From the IMG/VR virus record IMGVR_UViG_2531839527_000012: a DNA stretch of 25,720 nt; one strand, written 5' to 3'. The stretch comes from a virus. Lineage: Duplodnaviria > Heunggongvirae > Uroviricota > Caudoviricetes. Shown piece after piece: positions 878 through 17,116 of the stretch. Position 1 is the stretch's first letter. The number at the start of each line of letters is the position of its first letter. A program made the translations under genes and the position numbers. A model generated the notes under the pieces. It saw only the letters and a list, made by a program, of their open reading frames with translations. It was not told where the DNA came from and did no database searches.

Positions 878-1849
878 TCAAGCTATTGGATTAAATCTCA
901 CCGCATCCTGCAAGTAATCCGGCGCAAGATGGGCATAAATCATCGTTGTCTGAATCTTTGCGTGCCCCAGAATTTTCTGGAGCGTCAGAATATTGCCGCC
1001 GTTCATCATGAAATGACTGGCGAAGGTGTGGCGCAGCGCATGAACAGCCTGGCCGTCAGGAACATCAGATGCGACCGTTTTGATGACATCGCGAACCAAT
1101 GGATAATCCAGCGTCGGAAACACCAGTTTCCCGCCCCGTTTTTTGATCTTTTCAAACAGGCTTTCAGAAATAGGAACGGTACGGTTTTTGCTGTTCTTCG
1201 TTTTTGAAAAAGTGATTCGACAATGAAGAACACGGCGCTGCTCCAGTACCGCTACCTCGCCCCATCGCGCCCCGGTCGACAGAAGGATTTCGACAGCCAG
1301 CCGTTCATCGGGATTTTCAGCCAGTGCATCCAGCAACTGAACACATTCAGACTTACTCAGATATCCCATTTCGCGCTCGTTAACCTTCATTCCTTTAAGG
1401 CCTTGAACGGGGTTATCGTTAAGAAAATGGCCGGATGAGATGAGTGCGGTAAACATCGCGCTTAACGCCCCAATCTCTCGATTTATGGTGCTGGGCTGTA
1501 TCCCCTGCTCTATCCTGGACACACGTAGCTCGGTGAGCATCGTTGTATTAAGTTTATGCACGCACGGGTCATCCATTGCCTCACTCAAGCGCAGCAATTT
1601 AAGGCGCGTGTTATGCCCTGACTTCATTAGCTGGCCGTGGTATTTCCACCACAAGTCAATAAGCACTGACAGAGGACGGCGATCAATAGAGTTTCCTTTC
1701 CACTCATTGTTATGCTGTTGCGCCAGCCCCCACCGCTCATATAAAACTGCATCCGATTTCGTTTTAAATTTTTTGCGAATGCGTTTGCCTTTACGCCCCT
1801 CAGGGCGCATGTCAAGAAGATACCCTCCCGGAATTGATTTTATGCTCAT
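878..1849 (-). CDS. int: Tyrosine integrase, P2 Int-like
   Basis: ORF 878..1999 contains, from the internal Met (MSIKS...), a protein colinear with P2 integrase from memory: RKGKRIRKKFKTKSDA N-terminus, LSTGARWGE, HALRHTFASHFMMNGG, LQKILGH and IYAHL catalytic-domain motifs. Start placed at ATG 1849-1847; the 50 upstream codons are read-through. Confidence 0.9.
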   Translation of the reverse strand: MSIKSIPGGYLLDMRPEGRKGKRIRKKFKTKSDAVLYERWGLAQQHNNEWKGNSIDRRPLSVLIDLWWKYHGQLMKSGHNTRLKLLRLSEAMDDPCVHKLNTTMLTELRVSRIEQGIQPSTINREIGALSAMFTALISSGHFLNDNPVQGLKGMKVNEREMGYLSKSECVQLLDALAENPDERLAVEILLSTGARWGEVAVLEQRRVLHCRITFSKTKNSKNRTVPISESLFEKIKKRGGKLVFPTLDYPLVRDVIKTVASDVPDGQAVHALRHTFASHFMMNGGNILTLQKILGHAKIQTTMIYAHLAPDYLQDAVRFNPIA

Positions 1850-1898
1850 TCGTGAAACCCCAGCGTTACAAGACCACCATGCCCCCAGCGTTCCATGA

Positions 1899-2207
1899 TT
1901 AGCCGGGCTGTGTACCAGTCTTGCGGGGCTTTTGAGAAGACGATGTGTTTTCTGGCCCATCAGGGGAGAGAGAGGGACTGATCTGCCCAGCAGCCTCATT
2001 CGTTTTTCCTGTCATAAGCCAATTCATGTACTTAAAAAAGCGAGGGTGATTAACAATCTTGATAAGCACTTCGCCCCCTATGTTTTCAATCCGCCCCGTT
2101 TCATAACGACGCAAAGTGCCGATAGGCACATCAATCAGGCCGCAAAATTCTTCGCGCGTTAAATCCTCTGATTCACGAATCACTCTAATTTTTTCACCGA
2201 TAAGCAT
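1899..2207 (-). CDS. C: Immunity repressor, P2 C-like
   Basis: ORF 1899..2243; from Met13 (MLIGEKIRVIRESEDLTREEF...GTLRRYETGR) it is colinear with the ~99-aa P2 C repressor (ISEKIVLMRKSEYL...GTLSYYESGR, from memory). Same strand and upstream of int, as in P2. Start could alternatively be the ATG at 2243. Confidence 0.75.
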   Translation of the reverse strand: MLIGEKIRVIRESEDLTREEFCGLIDVPIGTLRRYETGRIENIGGEVLIKIVNHPRFFKYMNWLMTGKTNEAAGQISPSLSPDGPENTSSSQKPRKTGTQPG

Positions 2208-2219
2208 TGACAGTGTTCC

Positions 2220-2264
2220 TATAAGTACACTAAGCTTGCGCACAAGGTGTACTTATAAGTACAC
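2220..2264. promoter_or_regulatory. Lysis-lysogeny switch operator: three TAAGTACAC half-sites including a perfect 18-bp palindrome
   Basis: Between divergent C and cox: TAAGTACAC at 2222-2230 and the palindrome GTGTACTTA|TAAGTACAC at 2247-2264. A consensus TTGACA -35 hexamer sits at 2207-2212 on the plus strand. Promoter assignment is inferred, not demonstrated. Confidence 0.5.
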
Positions 2265-2303: not shown

Positions 2304-2582
2304 ATGGCAAAAGTCCTGAACACACACGAACAGGCAGACTTTGAGCGTTTAGCAGCGTTCTATCCCTACCGCGATGAGCATGGGTTACCAGTACTTGAAG
2401 AAAGCCTGAAAGATTACGCAAAGCGTACCAACCAAGCTGTTAACACAGTGAAAAGACAGGCTGACAGAGGTTCAATTCCCATCAACCAAGATGAAAAGAA
2501 CTCAAGACGCACAGTAAATCTTTTCGCTCTTTTCCTGAAAACAATCAGGAGCGCAGAGAAATACGTGCAGATGACAAAATAA
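2304..2582 (+). CDS. Small basic early protein in the cox position (Cox/excisionase-like by position only)
   Basis: 92-aa ORF, first rightward gene opposite the repressor. No sequence similarity to P2 Cox recognised; assignment is by synteny. Confidence 0.45.
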   Translation: MAKVLNTHEQADFERLAAFYPYRDEHGLPVLEESLKDYAKRTNQAVNTVKRQADRGSIPINQDEKNSRRTVNLFALFLKTIRSAEKYVQMTK

Positions 2583-2596
2583 CGAGGTGTCATTTT

Positions 2597-2935
2597 ATGC
2601 TGAAGCAACGCCGTAATTTTCGTACCGGAACAGAACGCCACGCTAACCATTTCGCTACCAACGCATCCCGCAGCAACATCCGCTACAGCCTGAGCGAGAC
2701 GCACGCAACACCTGATGGCCACACAGTAAAACAAATTGGCGAACACACCTGGCTAATTGAAAAAGCTGGAATCGTGGTTCACAGATGCCCACGCAATCCG
2801 TTTACCGGAAACCGCATTTTTGCACTAAGCAGCGGCGACAATCAGTTCGGACAGGATTTCACATTATACGAAGCACTTCGCACGGTTGATCGTCTGCTTC
2901 GCGGGCAAAGTTTTATTAAACAGACTGATTTATAA
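2597..2935 (+). CDS. Hypothetical early protein
   Basis: 112-aa ORF with GAGGTG ribosome-binding site 7 nt upstream of ATG 2597. No homolog recognised; does not look like P2 B. Confidence 0.45.
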   Translation: MLKQRRNFRTGTERHANHFATNASRSNIRYSLSETHATPDGHTVKQIGEHTWLIEKAGIVVHRCPRNPFTGNRIFALSSGDNQFGQDFTLYEALRTVDRLLRGQSFIKQTDL

Positions 2936-2945
2936 CAGGTGCGTT

Positions 2946-3224
2946 ATGATCAAAGAGCATGCACAAGGTGTATTTATCCGTTTTATTGATTTTCGCGGTG
3001 AACTGTTATTGCGCGCATCAGCTATTGATGGAGTTGTCCCATCAGAAAAAAATGCAGCTACTTACGTTTATCTGAACGGCACGCGCCTGACCGTAGAACT
3101 TCCGTACCAGACTGTACAAGGAATCATTAGCGAAGCTGAAAAAGCACGTAAGATTAATGGCGATGAACCCTATATCGAAATTATTTGTATGGATTCAGAA
3201 GCTGAAATTCAGAAAGCAGATTAA
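2946..3224 (+). CDS. Hypothetical early protein
   Basis: ORF frame 2886..3224; ATG at 2946 (MIKEHAQG...) is preceded by AGGTG. 92 aa, no homolog recognised. Confidence 0.4.
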   Translation: MIKEHAQGVFIRFIDFRGELLLRASAIDGVVPSEKNAATYVYLNGTRLTVELPYQTVQGIISEAEKARKINGDEPYIEIICMDSEAEIQKAD

Positions 3225-3235
3225 AGGGCGTTGCG

Positions 3236-3478
3236 ATGGGCAAAGAATATAAAACTCTCATTAACAAAGCACTTGAGCGTTTTTATTTTCGCTTAAGTGC
3301 ATCAGGTGCTCATGCTGAACGTGCAGCCCGTGACTCATTGACCAGGGCAATCCGGAGTCTGTATGACGTAGCTTTTTACGCTGATGATCTGGATGCACTT
3401 AACGAACTTTCCGAGCTGATCTGTGCCGCAGAATGCGGGGAGCATATTGAACCGTATAAGCTGGGGAATATTGCATGA
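3236..3478 (+). CDS. Hypothetical early protein
   Basis: 80-aa ORF beginning 11 nt after the previous stop. No homolog recognised. Confidence 0.4.
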   Translation: MGKEYKTLINKALERFYFRLSASGAHAERAARDSLTRAIRSLYDVAFYADDLDALNELSELICAAECGEHIEPYKLGNIA

Positions 3479-3588
3479 GTATATTTATCTCATGGCTTGT
3501 TCTGATTATTTCGGTGGTCTGCGCCATTGGGATTATGCAAATTATTCATTCAGTAAAAAAGATTGAACGCTTTTTCACTGGCGAATAA
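3475..3588 (+). CDS. Small hydrophobic single-transmembrane peptide (37 aa)
   Basis: Not in the ORF track (too short). ATG 3475 overlaps the upstream stop as ATGA; translation MSIFISWLVLIISVVCAIGIMQIIHSVKKIERFFTGE, a hydrophobic helix of about 22 residues followed by a basic tail. Confidence 0.4.
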   Translation: MSIFISWLVLIISVVCAIGIMQIIHSVKKIERFFTGE

Positions 3589-3675
3589 CAGCGCAAATAA
3601 AAACCCTAGGTTAAATAAGAAAATGTAAAAACAATCCGCATTCGCGGAGGTATTCGCACACGCCCAGGAGGCGTA

Positions 3676-3879
3676 ATGGCAATTAAGCATTTTCCTGTCG
3701 TTCGTTTCACTTCCAGAGGACGTGAATACGAAGTCGACGAACGCCTGATTACCACAATCGACAAACACCGCTCAGAAAAGGATGCACACCACATCTATCT
3801 CACTGACGGTACTTACTTCTGCGCCACTAATGTGGCGCGGGTGAATCTTATCCGACAGGTACAGGATCCACGTAAATGA
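3676..3879 (+). CDS. Hypothetical early protein
   Basis: 67-aa ORF with a strong AGGAGG ribosome-binding site at 3667-3672. Confidence 0.5.
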   Translation: MAIKHFPVVRFTSRGREYEVDERLITTIDKHRSEKDAHHIYLTDGTYFCATNVARVNLIRQVQDPRK

Positions 3880-4094
3880 GCAGGAGAAGAATCACTCGCA
3901 GACATCACCGCACACACCTGAATTCCTCAGCAACGCTAAAGGCACTTATTCAAAGCGAGATCGGTGATTTCTTCGCGGGAGTTGGCTCACCAGGTGAACC
4001 AGAAACACCAGAAGCGATGCAGCGTGAGCTCATGATACGCATAGATAACACTTTTGATTTCTTCTACAGCATGCACGGAATTAAACAGAAATGA
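3876..4094 (+). CDS. Hypothetical early protein
   Basis: 72-aa ORF; start overlaps the upstream stop (ATGA), suggesting translational coupling. Confidence 0.45.
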   Translation: MSRRRITRRHHRTHLNSSATLKALIQSEIGDFFAGVGSPGEPETPEAMQRELMIRIDNTFDFFYSMHGIKQK

Positions 4095-4202
4095 ACCTCA
4101 AGCCAGCAATAACTACTCGTAGAACGCCAATTTCTGTAACCGACCGCTTCTGAGTTTTTTGGCAGGAAGCCTTCGCACATCCTTAGTAGAGAGAATTGCA
4201 GC

Positions 4203-4592
4203 ATGATTGACGCTCATGACTTCACAAGATGGGTGCGCACACAGGACACCCGTCTGGCTCCCGTTCTCCAAGGATTATATGATCTTTACATCCGTGGTCG
4301 TGACAACAGAGCACGCACTACAAAACCGGAGAATGTGGATACCCTTTATTTCACAGTAGACGACTGCTACCGCGTGGACTTCACACCACACGGACTGGCG
4401 TTGCACTGCCTGACACCGCACGGCGAATCACTGCTGGCGTATTACGACTCCCCGGCCTCCGTATTTGCGGCAATGCTGGCGCATCGCACTGCTGGCGGGT
4501 GTGCCTCGCTGAGTGAATACACCGCTGAATTTAACCGCCTTTCCACCATCTTCTTGCAGGAGTGGCAGCGCGTGACGGGATACCAGCCATGA
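4203..4592 (+). CDS. Hypothetical early protein immediately upstream of the replication gene
   Basis: 129-aa ORF whose stop overlaps the A start (ATGA at 4589-4592). No homolog recognised. Confidence 0.45.
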   Translation: MIDAHDFTRWVRTQDTRLAPVLQGLYDLYIRGRDNRARTTKPENVDTLYFTVDDCYRVDFTPHGLALHCLTPHGESLLAYYDSPASVFAAMLAHRTAGGCASLSEYTAEFNRLSTIFLQEWQRVTGYQP

Positions 4593-7429
4593 GTGAGTTT
4601 GCATGGAGCTGGAATGAACCACGACCAGCCATTGATCCGGCCAGATTTACGGAGCACAGGCAGGAAACTGAAACCGACCTGCAACGCGCCATCCGTTACT
4701 ACCTTGAGGCGGACAAAAGGGCACAGAAAGAACAGGAAGCGAAGGAAGAAGCCTTTTTCGCACAATCCGCCATGGGTAAAAAACTCATGGCATCCCTTGA
4801 GGAAGCCGGACAGCGTGAAAAGCTGGCACAGAGCATCATCAGTAAGCGCCGGGCAACAGAACAAGACCCGGTAGCCCGTGCCTTTGCCACACTGAAGGCG
4901 CTTCCCGTTTATCTGCGAGAACCTCTGAGCCGCCACCTCTCTTTCCTGCGCAAGAAGCAGGAAGCCGATCGTCAGAAAGGCAAAAAGAGCTGGCAGGCGG
5001 AACGCTATGCACGCGGAACCCTGCGCAAAATATTCGAACGTCTGGACCGCACCGACAGCCGCTGGCTGACACCGGGTTATCGCTCCCTTGCCGGACGCGA
5101 ACGCCTGGACGATTTGCTTTACCTGCCGCAGCTCAACAAACACCAGATACAGACGCTGGCCACCATGACGGCGGCGATGTTCAGCAGCACCTTCGAAAAA
5201 CTCTGCGATGGCTTTGGCGCGACTGATGGCGAACTGACCATGGATGTAACGCTGAAGGCGTATCAGATGCTGGCCCGCATGGCGTTACACCTGCACGCCA
5301 TGCCTCCACATTATGACGCACTGACAACAGACAAAGACCGGAGGAACGAACCGGACACGGAGCTGCTGCCGGGCGCAATCCTTCGCCTGACCTGTGCGGA
5401 ATGGTGGAAACGCAAACTGTGGCTGTTACGTTGCGAGTGGAGAGAAGAACAACTCCGCGCCGCCTGTCTGGTTTCCAGAAAAACATCACCCTATCTGAGC
5501 CAGGACGCGTTAAGCGAGTTTCGCGCACAGCGCGAGAAAACACGCGATTTCCTGAAAAGTTTCATGCTGGAAAATGAAGACGGGTTCACGATTGATCTCG
5601 AGACGGTGTATTACGCGGGTGTCAGTAACCCGGTTCACCGTAAGGCAGAAATGATGGCCACCATGAAGGGACTGGAACTTCTGGCCGAAGCCCGTGGCGA
5701 CAGAGCGGTGTTTCTGACTGTCACCTGCCCGTCAAAATACCACGCAACAACGGAGAACGGTCATCCGAACCCCAAATGGAACGGGGCCACCATGCGCGAC
5801 TCCAGCGATTACCTGGTTAACACGTTTTTTGCGGCGGTCCGCAAAAAACTGAACCGCGACGGTCTGCGCTGGTATGGCATCCGCACGGTGGAGCCTCACC
5901 ATGACGGCACGGTGCACTGGCATATGATGGTCTTTGCACATCCGGACGAGATTGAAACCATCGTGTCCCACGTCTGCGATATTGCCATTCAGGAAGACCG
6001 CCACGAGCTGGGCGATGACATAACTCCGCGTTTTAAGGCGGAGTACGTAGACGGCTCAAAAGGCACACCAACCAGCTACATCGCCACCTACATCGGAAAG
6101 AACCTGGACAGCCGCGCCGTGGATGGCATCGACCCGAAAACGGGCAAGCCACGCGTTGACCACGAAACCGGAAAATCAATGGCCGAGAGCGTGGAACGCG
6201 CCATCGGCTGGGCGCGCCTTCACCGGGTCCGCCAGTTCCAGTTCTTTGGTATCCCCTCCCGTCAGGTGTGGCGTGAACTGCGCCGCCTTGCCAGCCAGAT
6301 GGCACGCAATCCGGAAGGCCCGCAACGGCTGAAAGATGATGCAATGGATGCGGTACTCGCTGCCGCCGATGCCGGGTGTTTTGCCACCTACATTGAAAAA
6401 CAGGGTGGCGTGCTTGTTCCACGCAAGGACTACCTGATTCGCACCGCCTACGACCTCGCAGATGAGCTGAACGATTACGGCGAACAGAGCGTACAGATTT
6501 ACGGGATCTGGTCACCACTCATCGGGGAATCCTCCCGTGTGTGCACGCATCCGGATAACTGGAAGCTGGTAAGACGTAAACCAGAACCGGAAGACAACGC
6601 CCACGAAAATGGTTTTGACCTTCAGGGCGGCCCTGCCGCCCCTTGGACTCGTGGCAATAACTGTCCCCGTGTACAGGAAACGGACAACAACGGGACAGAA
6701 CAGCCGGAAGAACGGCCAGCACCGTGGCCGCAGCTCCCTGACGGCGTTGACGTGAATGAATGGATGCGCTCACTGAAACGGCACGAACGCCGGGCGCTGA
6801 TGCGTTCGCTGCGTGACAAACAGGCAAAAAACAGCAGTGATGAAATGCAGAACTGGACACAGAGCCGCAAACAGCCACGGCCTTTGCCTGATAACCACGA
6901 GTTACTCGCTAAAGAATGGCGGGAGTCTGCTGAATCTCTCGGCCTGCATATCGGTGAACAGCAGATGCAGCACCTGTTACGGGGCGGCAGTCTGTACGTT
7001 GACGGCAGCATCATTGCACCGCAGGGATTTGAAATTGTACGCAAACCGGATACCCGCCCGGACAGCCGAATCACGCAACTCTGGCAGCGCCTGAGCCGTA
7101 ATCACGGCGTAAGCAGCACGGAGATCCGCCATAACCCGGTCGCCAGCTATCTGGAACAGCTGGGGGCATCAGACCCCGAAGCCGCCGCACACCTGGCATC
7201 CACACTTCAGCAGGACCAGAACACCATGAAAACCCCCGTTACCGTGCTTTCTGACATGCTGCGCGCCATCCGTGACGCAGAGCACGCACAGAGAATCAGT
7301 GAAACCACTGAACGCGCCCACCGCAAAGCAGACCTGCTGCGGGGTAGCCTGACCAGTGGAAACAAAAAACAGACAGAAACGGGACTCACAAATCCCGTAA
7401 ATGAGCAAAAAACGTGCCGCGATATATGA
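4589..7429 (+). CDS. A: Replication initiation endonuclease, P2 gpA-like (HUH rolling-circle initiator)
   Basis: About 946 aa from ATG 4589. HUH motif VHWHMMVF near 5914-5925 and a twin-tyrosine motif SYIATYIGK near 6074-6091, both typical of P2/phiX-type initiators. Longer than the ~761-aa P2 A (from memory), with a long C-terminal region. Confidence 0.85.
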   Translation: MSEFAWSWNEPRPAIDPARFTEHRQETETDLQRAIRYYLEADKRAQKEQEAKEEAFFAQSAMGKKLMASLEEAGQREKLAQSIISKRRATEQDPVARAFATLKALPVYLREPLSRHLSFLRKKQEADRQKGKKSWQAERYARGTLRKIFERLDRTDSRWLTPGYRSLAGRERLDDLLYLPQLNKHQIQTLATMTAAMFSSTFEKLCDGFGATDGELTMDVTLKAYQMLARMALHLHAMPPHYDALTTDKDRRNEPDTELLPGAILRLTCAEWWKRKLWLLRCEWREEQLRAACLVSRKTSPYLSQDALSEFRAQREKTRDFLKSFMLENEDGFTIDLETVYYAGVSNPVHRKAEMMATMKGLELLAEARGDRAVFLTVTCPSKYHATTENGHPNPKWNGATMRDSSDYLVNTFFAAVRKKLNRDGLRWYGIRTVEPHHDGTVHWHMMVFAHPDEIETIVSHVCDIAIQEDRHELGDDITPRFKAEYVDGSKGTPTSYIATYIGKNLDSRAVDGIDPKTGKPRVDHETGKSMAESVERAIGWARLHRVRQFQFFGIPSRQVWRELRRLASQMARNPEGPQRLKDDAMDAVLAAADAGCFATYIEKQGGVLVPRKDYLIRTAYDLADELNDYGEQSVQIYGIWSPLIGESSRVCTHPDNWKLVRRKPEPEDNAHENGFDLQGGPAAPWTRGNNCPRVQETDNNGTEQPEERPAPWPQLPDGVDVNEWMRSLKRHERRALMRSLRDKQAKNSSDEMQNWTQSRKQPRPLPDNHELLAKEWRESAESLGLHIGEQQMQHLLRGGSLYVDGSIIAPQGFEIVRKPDTRPDSRITQLWQRLSRNHGVSSTEIRHNPVASYLEQLGASDPEAAAHLASTLQQDQNTMKTPVTVLSDMLRAIRDAEHAQRISETTERAHRKADLLRGSLTSGNKKQTETGLTNPVNEQKTCRDI

Positions 7430-16403: not shown

Positions 16404-16727
16404 GTGAGCACCATTCAAACAGGGATCACAGAGCAGGTTATTGCGTGGCTCTTTGACCACCTGCCAACGGTGTATGCAGTAGGCGCGGCAGTCAGCATTT
16501 CCGCGCTGATGAGTCTTTATGACGGACGAACTCTGGTTCAGACCGTAACGGGATCGCTGGCGTGCGGCGTTCTTGCCATGGCCGTGGCCGGGTCGTTGCG
16601 CTTCTTCGGTTTTCCTGAAGATGCCGTGACGTTTATCGGCGCATCAATCGGTTTTATGGGTGCAGAGAAAGCACGCGACAAGGTTATTGCGGCCTTTAAT
16701 CGCAGGGTGAAGGAGAAGGACGAATGA
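16404..16727 (+). CDS. Putative holin
   Basis: GTG 16404, 2 nt after the X stop; 107 aa with two or three hydrophobic helices and a charged C-terminal tail (RRVKEKDE). Immediately precedes and overlaps the endolysin (ATGA). Assigned by position and topology; not similar to P2 Y. Confidence 0.55.
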   Translation: MSTIQTGITEQVIAWLFDHLPTVYAVGAAVSISALMSLYDGRTLVQTVTGSLACGVLAMAVAGSLRFFGFPEDAVTFIGASIGFMGAEKARDKVIAAFNRRVKEKDE

Positions 16728-17116
16728 GCAACACATTTAAATTCAGCAGCCGGAGCGAAAAGAATTTGCAGGGCGTAAATCCTGATCTGGTGAAAGTGAC
16801 CCGACGGGCACTGGAAATCTCGGAAGTGGATTTTGGTATCACCGAAGGGTTGCGCAGCCGTTACCGCCAGAAGCAACTGGTGGCCACGGGTAAGAGCCAG
16901 ACCATGAACAGCCGCCACCTTACGGGGCATGCCGTGGATGTTGTGGCTTATATCGGCAGCCAGGTGTCATGGGAATGGCCGCTGTACGAAAAAATCGCAG
17001 CAGCATTCAGACAGGCCAGCCGGGAACTGAATATTCCGGTGGAATGGGGCGGCGACTGGAAGACCCTGAAAGACGGACCGCATTTTCAGTTACCACACGG
17101 AGGCTATCCGGCATGA
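16724..17116 (+). CDS. Endolysin, peptidase M15 (VanY / L-alanyl-D-glutamate peptidase type)
   Basis: 130 aa; SRHLTGHAVDV and GPHFQ resemble the Zn-binding H-x6-D ... H signature of M15 peptidases. Sits between holin and spanins. Confidence 0.7.
   Translation: MSNTFKFSSRSEKNLQGVNPDLVKVTRRALEISEVDFGITEGLRSRYRQKQLVATGKSQTMNSRHLTGHAVDVVAYIGSQVSWEWPLYEKIAAAFRQASRELNIPVEWGGDWKTLKDGPHFQLPHGGYPA

Follow-up and report, generated by a model that had tools for sequence, protein, structure and literature searches.

The stretch of DNA analysed here (25,720 nucleotides; IMG/VR record IMGVR_UViG_2531839527_000012; hereafter the window) is a P88-like prophage of E. coli, P2-like and belonging to Xuanwuvirus (Peduoviridae). 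P88 and other Xuanwuvirus members are its closest phages, with 88-95% DNA identity over 3236-3900, and in E. coli E1739 btuC adjoins an identical copy of the stretch. The early operon reads rightward from a repressor/cox switch to the gpA replicase gene, with the portal, terminase, capsid, lysis and tail genes located downstream of gpA (Table 1). Within this operon, a first-pass annotation made from the sequence letters had picked out a 37-codon ORF with a hydrophobic product and a start codon overlapping the stop codon of the preceding gene, and the ORF, its overlap and its place in the rightward early operon of a P2-like prophage were all confirmed. The ATG is the first start codon past an in-frame stop, and the ORF is the last gene of a conserved first block that comprises the cox-like gene, the DUF4761 gene, orf92, the DUF4754 gene and the peptide gene.

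Table 1. Features of the window that are discussed in the text (positions are those of the window)
Feature	Position	Strand	Details
Integrase	878-1999	-	
C-type repressor	1899-2243	-	
Cox-like gene	2304-2582	+	In the rightward operon
DUF4761 gene	2597-2935	+	112 aa
orf92	2946-3224	+	92-residue ORF
DUF4754 gene	3236-3478	+	80 aa; Pfam PF15946, E=2.8e-54
Shine-Dalgarno-like GGGGAA	3463-3468	+	In the final DUF4754 codons, 8 nt 5' of the ATG
ATGA overlap	3475-3478	+	ATG 3475-3477 over the DUF4754 TGA 3476-3478; coupling signal
Small-protein gene	3475-3588	+	37 codons + TAA; product MSIFISWLVLIISVVCAIGIMQIIHSVKKIERFFTGE; WP_000021663.1; followed by small ORFs
Predicted membrane span	3481-3537	+	IFISWLVLIISVVCAIGIM, codons 3-21; mean Kyte-Doolittle 2.81
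Juxtamembrane amphipathic helix	3538-3579	+	QIIHSVKKIERFFT, codons 22-35; muH 0.68
A6 run inside the ORF	3555-3560	+	1-nt slip site
T5 run inside the ORF	3571-3575	+	1-nt slip site
Hairpin	3635-3650		TCCGC-N4-GCGGA, then GG; 46 nt 3' of the stop codon
P2 gpA-type replication endonuclease	4562-7429	+	
Endolysin-like ORF	16724-17116		

In the repressor/cox-like switch region (2207-2265), a rightward promoter-like pair, TTGACA-N18-TAAGCT, overlaps repeats of TATAAGTACAC that are arranged as inverted GTGTACTTATAAGTACAC and are likely to be repressor operators. At the other end of the early region, the match of the window to the prophage of strain IHE3034 ends right of about 3882, the ORF at 3876-4094 matches phrog_4144 over positions 34-97 only, and PGAP treats 3957-4094 as a pseudogene truncated at its N-terminus. 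Neither the MarR-like gene nor the 'derepression protein' gene of relatives was found in the early region of the window, and these missing genes, together with the truncated pseudogene, indicate that the prophage may be rearranged and perhaps not inducible.

Conservation of the ORF was examined in 106 motif-carrying loci gathered from IMG/VR, NCBI genomes, Logan assemblies and phage records; a contig search with a single DUF4754 query had returned only two loci. The ORF is intact, with its ATGA over the upstream stop codon, in all 106 loci, and the upstream ORF is exactly 80 codons long in every locus that includes 243 nt of upstream sequence (n=105), even where the upstream protein is just 26-42% identical to that of the window. 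Across 41 distinct coding sequences, dN/dS (Nei-Gojobori, NG86) is 0.25 in the frame of the ORF, against 1.0-1.9 in four others; the antisense frame of the same codon phase (-1) yields 0.36, but is interrupted by stops in 27 of the 41 sequences, and frame 0 is the sole frame open in every one. The first-pass annotation had proposed a check of the ORF and its coupling in related prophages and named loss of the frame in related phages as evidence against a gene; instead, the frame is kept and is under purifying selection. From this conservation and selection it follows that the ORF is very probably translated, and the comparison establishes it as a bona fide protein-coding gene of the P88-like prophage. 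We hold with high confidence that it is a real small membrane-protein gene, translationally linked to DUF4754.

Two overlapping ORFs were considered and rejected: a 47-codon ORF at 3423-3566 on the plus strand, with dN/dS above 1 and stops in relatives, and an ORF at 3399-3527 on the minus strand, with dN/dS of at least 1 or stops in relatives. Database proteins of 103-116 residues labelled 'DUF4754', which read the wrong frame over the peptide and contain the 3423-3566 ORF, were likewise set aside as frameshift read-throughs or products of wrong starts, mostly from raw-read assemblies. The peptide sequence is absent from the supplements of the O157:H7 Sakai translatome paper, and a literature search returned no mention of DUF4754, the peptide sequence or its accessions.

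The Shine-Dalgarno-like block upstream of the ATG has a predicted anti-Shine-Dalgarno pairing energy of -5.5 kcal/mol, which is moderate. In relatives, each of the 17 distinct upstream contexts has a pairing energy of at least this order (-4.2 kcal/mol or better), a strength that can be read against the 10% of background positions that reach -4 kcal/mol, and the purine-rich block is kept while the C-terminal DUF4754 residues encoded there vary. The invariance of the ATGA junction argues, at the level of sequence, for joint production of the peptide and DUF4754 at a fixed ratio.

DUF4754 is an acidic protein of 80 residues (net charge -3), for which AlphaFold2 models a helical hairpin of two helices (pLDDT 90.8); comparison of the model with the PDB and BFVD gave no structural match at E<=0.001, and the family has as narrow a distribution as the peptide. 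In comparisons with five divergent relatives, identity is 51-65% for the peptide and 31-42% for DUF4754, compared to 43-46% for the integrase, 34-56% for the repressor and 40-46% for gpA where a long alignment could be obtained. By these comparisons the peptide is among the best-kept proteins of the early region, above DUF4754, the integrase, repressor C and the replicase gpA in divergent relatives; its gene is part of the conserved core and not one of the variable accessory genes. In all but one of these five relatives, DUF4761 is the best-kept protein of the early block, at 67-78% identity; in L106, the exception, it is 31% identical over a short stretch.

Natural mosaics of the two genes exist. 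Locus L088 (3762-4126) pairs a P88-type DUF4754, 83% identical to that of the window, with the 41-residue peptide of L087, whose own DUF4754 (L087 3762-4126) is 40% identical to that of the window, and this mosaic shows recombination at or near the ATGA junction. Since such mosaics join a single peptide type to DUF4754 types that differ greatly, there is no evident sign of tight co-adaptation between the two proteins, and any contact between them must use conserved positions. Charges of the two proteins are complementary, with a net -3 on DUF4754 and three to five K/R residues in the tail.

The peptide is predicted to form one continuous helix that consists of a 19-residue membrane span and an amphipathic tail. 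An AlphaFold2 model made from a 60-sequence alignment has a single helix over residues 2-35 (pLDDT 88.6), which, with the hydropathy of residues 3-21, upholds the single transmembrane helix that had been predicted at the outset; the basic tail proposed with it is also present, though it is mildly basic, with three K/R and two E residues at positions 22-35 (net +1). Residue 22 is Q in the window and R in most relatives, which adds one charge. By the positive-inside rule, the peptide would insert in the inner membrane with its two-residue N-terminus out and its K/R-bearing tail in the cytoplasm. Positions F4, S6, W7, L10, I11, A17, G19, I20, I23, I24, K28, I30 and E31 are near-invariant and F34 is invariant across the aligned homologues; conservation follows a helical periodicity in the tail (p=0.027) and shows no more than a trend towards this in the membrane span (p=0.06).

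A full HMMER scan of 1.84 billion representative proteins yielded nine matches, every one from the same family. With a profile made from the family alignment, led by a 41-residue member, a search of a 5.8-billion-protein collection recovered 152 homologues, essentially all from Escherichia (coli, albertii and fergusonii), and one further homologue was found in a Citrobacter rodentium phage. Homologues fall into two length classes, of 37 residues and of 41 residues with the ending ...FTG[DE]KRRK, and share the conserved tail pattern ...K.IE..F[TS].[ED]. The window product has the N-terminal M-[SN]-[IV]-F-[ILM]-S-W, the G19 and the tail K-x-I-E-x-x-F of the family, with Q22 in place of the common R22, and its gene has the same setting as in all 106 loci: within a P2-like early operon, it directly follows a DUF4754 gene of 80 codons and overlaps it by ATGA. 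No significant match to the peptide or to its 41-residue homologue was found in Pfam, PHROGs, NCBIfam or PADLOC, with neither the peptide nor P0003 matching PADLOC at E<=1, and a PDB sequence search with the family profile gave no match.

Variants of 45 and 50 residues with an unrelated C-terminus arise from single-base slips in the A6 or T5 run. Because they have diversified further, these variants are inherited lineages and not read errors, and the existence of such frameshifted-tail lineages implies that the last four residues are dispensable, at least for prophage carriage. In one group of loci (L094-L101), a second small hydrophobic ORF of 31 aa, MKNVKAIHTIATVWVIFQVSALIWLALKIWE, lies directly 3' of the 41-residue peptide (L095 1878-1973), and the usual hairpin is replaced by another stem-loop followed by a T-rich run.

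Downstream of the peptide gene, nearly every locus retains a hairpin, including loci in which the sequences to its left and right are unrelated. Among its 20 distinct variants, 99% of cells are paired; one compensatory change alters both members of a pair, CG to UA, and two single substitutions preserve G-U compatibility on the plus strand. Equivalents are found at 3160-3173 in L104, 3159-3172 in L106 and 4158-4171 in both L091 and L087. On the minus strand, scans scored the hairpin as terminator-like in five divergent loci, and on the plus strand in L106 only, the minus-strand calls being due to a near-invariant A-tract 5' of the stem. The first early block of P2 (cox, orf78, B) has a putative rho-independent terminator downstream of it, and in 186, tR1 follows apl, cII, fil and dhr. 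The hairpin stands at the position of these first early terminators and has GGG(C/A)TTC after the stem in common with them. It forms the boundary between the conserved early block and variable genes. Similarity between relatives breaks at about 3660-3676, right past the hairpin, where the window has a 67-aa ORF, many E. coli and E. albertii have a 137-aa ORF, and others have different genes; from these alignments the site resembles a hotspot at which accessory genes recombine or are inserted.

Consensus scans of the window and four divergent relatives found no plus-strand promoter at a consistent place 5' of the DUF4754-peptide pair. As no consistent internal promoter was found, expression should depend on the repressor-controlled early promoter, and this favours a role in the lytic phase over an exclusion function expressed in the lysogen.

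The first-pass annotation had described the ORF as untracked, and this did not hold: RefSeq/PGAP annotates it as hypothetical in every E. coli genome row that covers it. PGAP entries of 37 residues, all hypothetical, are WP_000021663.1 (the window), WP_000021652.1 (IHE3034) and WP_000021655.1 (O157:H7), and in GenBank the homologue AIZ95115.1 of phage P88 (KP063541) is named 'membrane protein' and that of vB_EcoM-569R5 a (putative) membrane protein. These four accessioned proteins are products of the same gene, each of 37 residues, 89-95% identical and with the same DUF4754 ATGA overlap; the P88 and Xuanwuvirus entries differ from the window by strain-level substitutions only (Q22 here, R22 in most). 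A query of 141 nt that covers the ORF matched 1375 of 5426 complete E. coli genomes, about a quarter, nearly always as a single chromosomal copy per genome, and a 'hypothetical protein' feature lies beneath every full-length match among the matches listed. Carriers include O157:H7 and O104:H4 strains. One locus (L005, NZ_JBQPOM010000071.1) lies on a 226-kb contig labelled Vagococcus sp. WN89Y, a Gram-positive, and encodes a DUF4754 98% identical to that of an E. coli prophage; the contig is probably contamination or a mislabelled assembly.

Several known systems resemble the locus in part. In phage 186, fil blocks cell division and dhr depresses host replication, and the two genes overlap. The DUF4754-peptide pair is similar as a small overlapping gene pair that closes the first early lytic block just before a terminator-type hairpin, but Fil (75 aa) and Dhr (66 aa) are not hydrophobic and have no similarity to the pair, so that the analogy is positional only. 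No homology of DUF4754 or the peptide to 186 Fil or Dhr, or to P2 Orf78, which is likewise not hydrophobic, is evident.

Bacterial small inner-membrane regulators such as AcrZ, MgtS, MgrB and CydX have fewer than 50 residues and one membrane helix, and bind a larger membrane protein. By analogy, the conserved helical residues and tail of the peptide would fit this mode of binding. Unlike these regulators, the peptide is phage-encoded, operon-internal and translationally coupled, and it has no homology to them in searches of 1.8 billion representative proteins, Pfam and NCBIfam.

Type I toxins (Hok, TisB, Ldr, Ibs, Zor and DinQ) share its size and hydrophobic single-helix character, and on predicted features the peptide is a small hydrophobic membrane peptide of that kind; in contrast to them, it is embedded and coupled in a phage operon, and consensus scans, which are a weak test, found neither a small RNA in antisense or divergent orientation nor a separate transcription unit for it. 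TatA and TatE have a similar layout of short N-terminus, membrane helix and amphipathic helix, whereas the peptide family is much shorter and without their F-G hinge motif; membership was rejected, as the 41-residue homologue P0003 was the only one to match NCBIfam NF003393, at E=0.11 and 12.4 bits, far below the cutoff of 104. A holin or pinholin was also rejected, since the lysis-type genes lie at about 16.2-17.7 kb and the peptide gene 13 kb away in the early operon.

Taken as one statement, that this is a real, coupled small membrane-protein gene whose product has an early-lytic role as a binder or anchor, our reading has a probability of about 0.5. In this reading, the peptide would be made by coupled or re-initiating translation, at a fixed ratio with DUF4754, right after derepression, and would then work by binding a larger partner, as known bacterial small membrane proteins do. 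Candidate binding surfaces are S6, W7, L10, S/A13, A17 and G19 in the membrane and I23, I24, K28, I30, E31 and F34 in the tail, and what it binds would be an inner-membrane protein of the host, acidic DUF4754 recruited to the membrane, or both of these. Such a role would fall early in lytic development, in host takeover, and not in the lysogen, because the gene depends on a repressed early promoter and sits where 186 has fil and dhr. The binder or anchor role by itself is a tentative proposal. A stronger version, in which the peptide and DUF4754 together are an immediate-early effector that seizes or blocks a specific host inner-membrane machine, or forms a viroporin-like channel, is speculative and rather unlikely.

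A membrane-damaging peptide of the kil, type-I-toxin-like or viroporin-like kind, which oligomerises and depolarises or permeabilises the inner membrane to shut down the host or block incoming DNA during early lytic growth, is the foremost alternative, though a doubtful one. Its size, hydrophobicity and span-plus-amphipathic-helix layout would suit such a peptide, the polar or small residues S6, S/A13 and A17 share one helical face, and the gene would be silent in the lysogen through its dependence on the repressed early promoter. However, there is no Rfam match in the window, no transcription unit of its own or antisense RNA, and no minus-strand promoter within the window's ORF by consensus scan; minus-strand promoter-like hexamers in the ORFs of three relatives come from Ile codons and have no terminator to match. 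The conserved polar tail residues K28 and E31, together with the strict coupling to a soluble partner, suggest specific binding instead.

Less probable still is superinfection exclusion, in which the peptide would keep the DNA of competing phages from crossing the inner membrane. Many known exclusion proteins are small, reside in that membrane and are encoded close to immunity regions, and the high frequency of the element in E. coli (1375 of 5426 genomes) would agree with such a function. Against this, the gene lies about 1.2 kb inside a repressor-controlled early operon with no internal promoter conserved across relatives, so that expression in the lysogen is not expected; it is a core early gene and not a variable moron, the variable genes beginning past the hairpin, and it has no PADLOC match.

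It is very improbable that the ORF is a regulatory leader, whose translation brings ribosomes up to the hairpin and affects polarity or termination while the peptide itself is irrelevant. The end of the ORF so close to a conserved hairpin, at the position of the first early terminators of P2 and 186, would be expected of a leader, but purifying selection acts on the amino acids (dN/dS 0.25), many residues are near-invariant, and the hairpin is terminator-like mainly on the opposite strand.

We give scarcely any credence to a cleavable signal peptide or lipoprotein precursor from which a short peptide would be released into the periplasm: S-V-A-C variants at 13-16 are lipobox-like and V-C-A at 15-17 resembles a signal-peptidase site, but residues 1-21 contain no K/R, the charged residues come after the hydrophobic span, and 17 of 60 aligned sequences have M, F, Y or S in place of Cys16, so that both a lipoprotein and a Sec signal peptide were rejected for want of a positive N-region and an invariant lipobox Cys. 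That a chance ORF is kept only through other DNA or RNA constraint is almost certainly wrong: short ORFs commonly arise by chance and AT-rich codons predominate here, but variable sites at codon positions 1/2/3 number 26/12/35 and are thus mostly third-position, the frame is open in all distinct sequences while other frames have stops in most or all, and the protein is 51-65% identical where the flanking DNA is unrelated.

The gene thus belongs with the small phage membrane proteins, a familiar class, and does not represent a new kind of system; it is annotated already, as hypothetical, and there is now good support for its reality. Few studies have addressed such proteins, and this one is a good candidate for experiment by virtue of its selection signature, its invariant link to uncharacterised DUF4754 and its presence in 1375 of 5426 complete E. 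coli genomes. If the effector reading is true, the peptide would define a small-protein family that is new and has a host target, and about a quarter of E. coli strains would carry it silently. Were a role to be defined, for example in blocking division or replication, in targeting DUF4754 to the membrane or as a channel, two 'unknown' families would gain a function at once, and the start of lytic growth, in its first minutes, would become clearer for a prophage group that is common.
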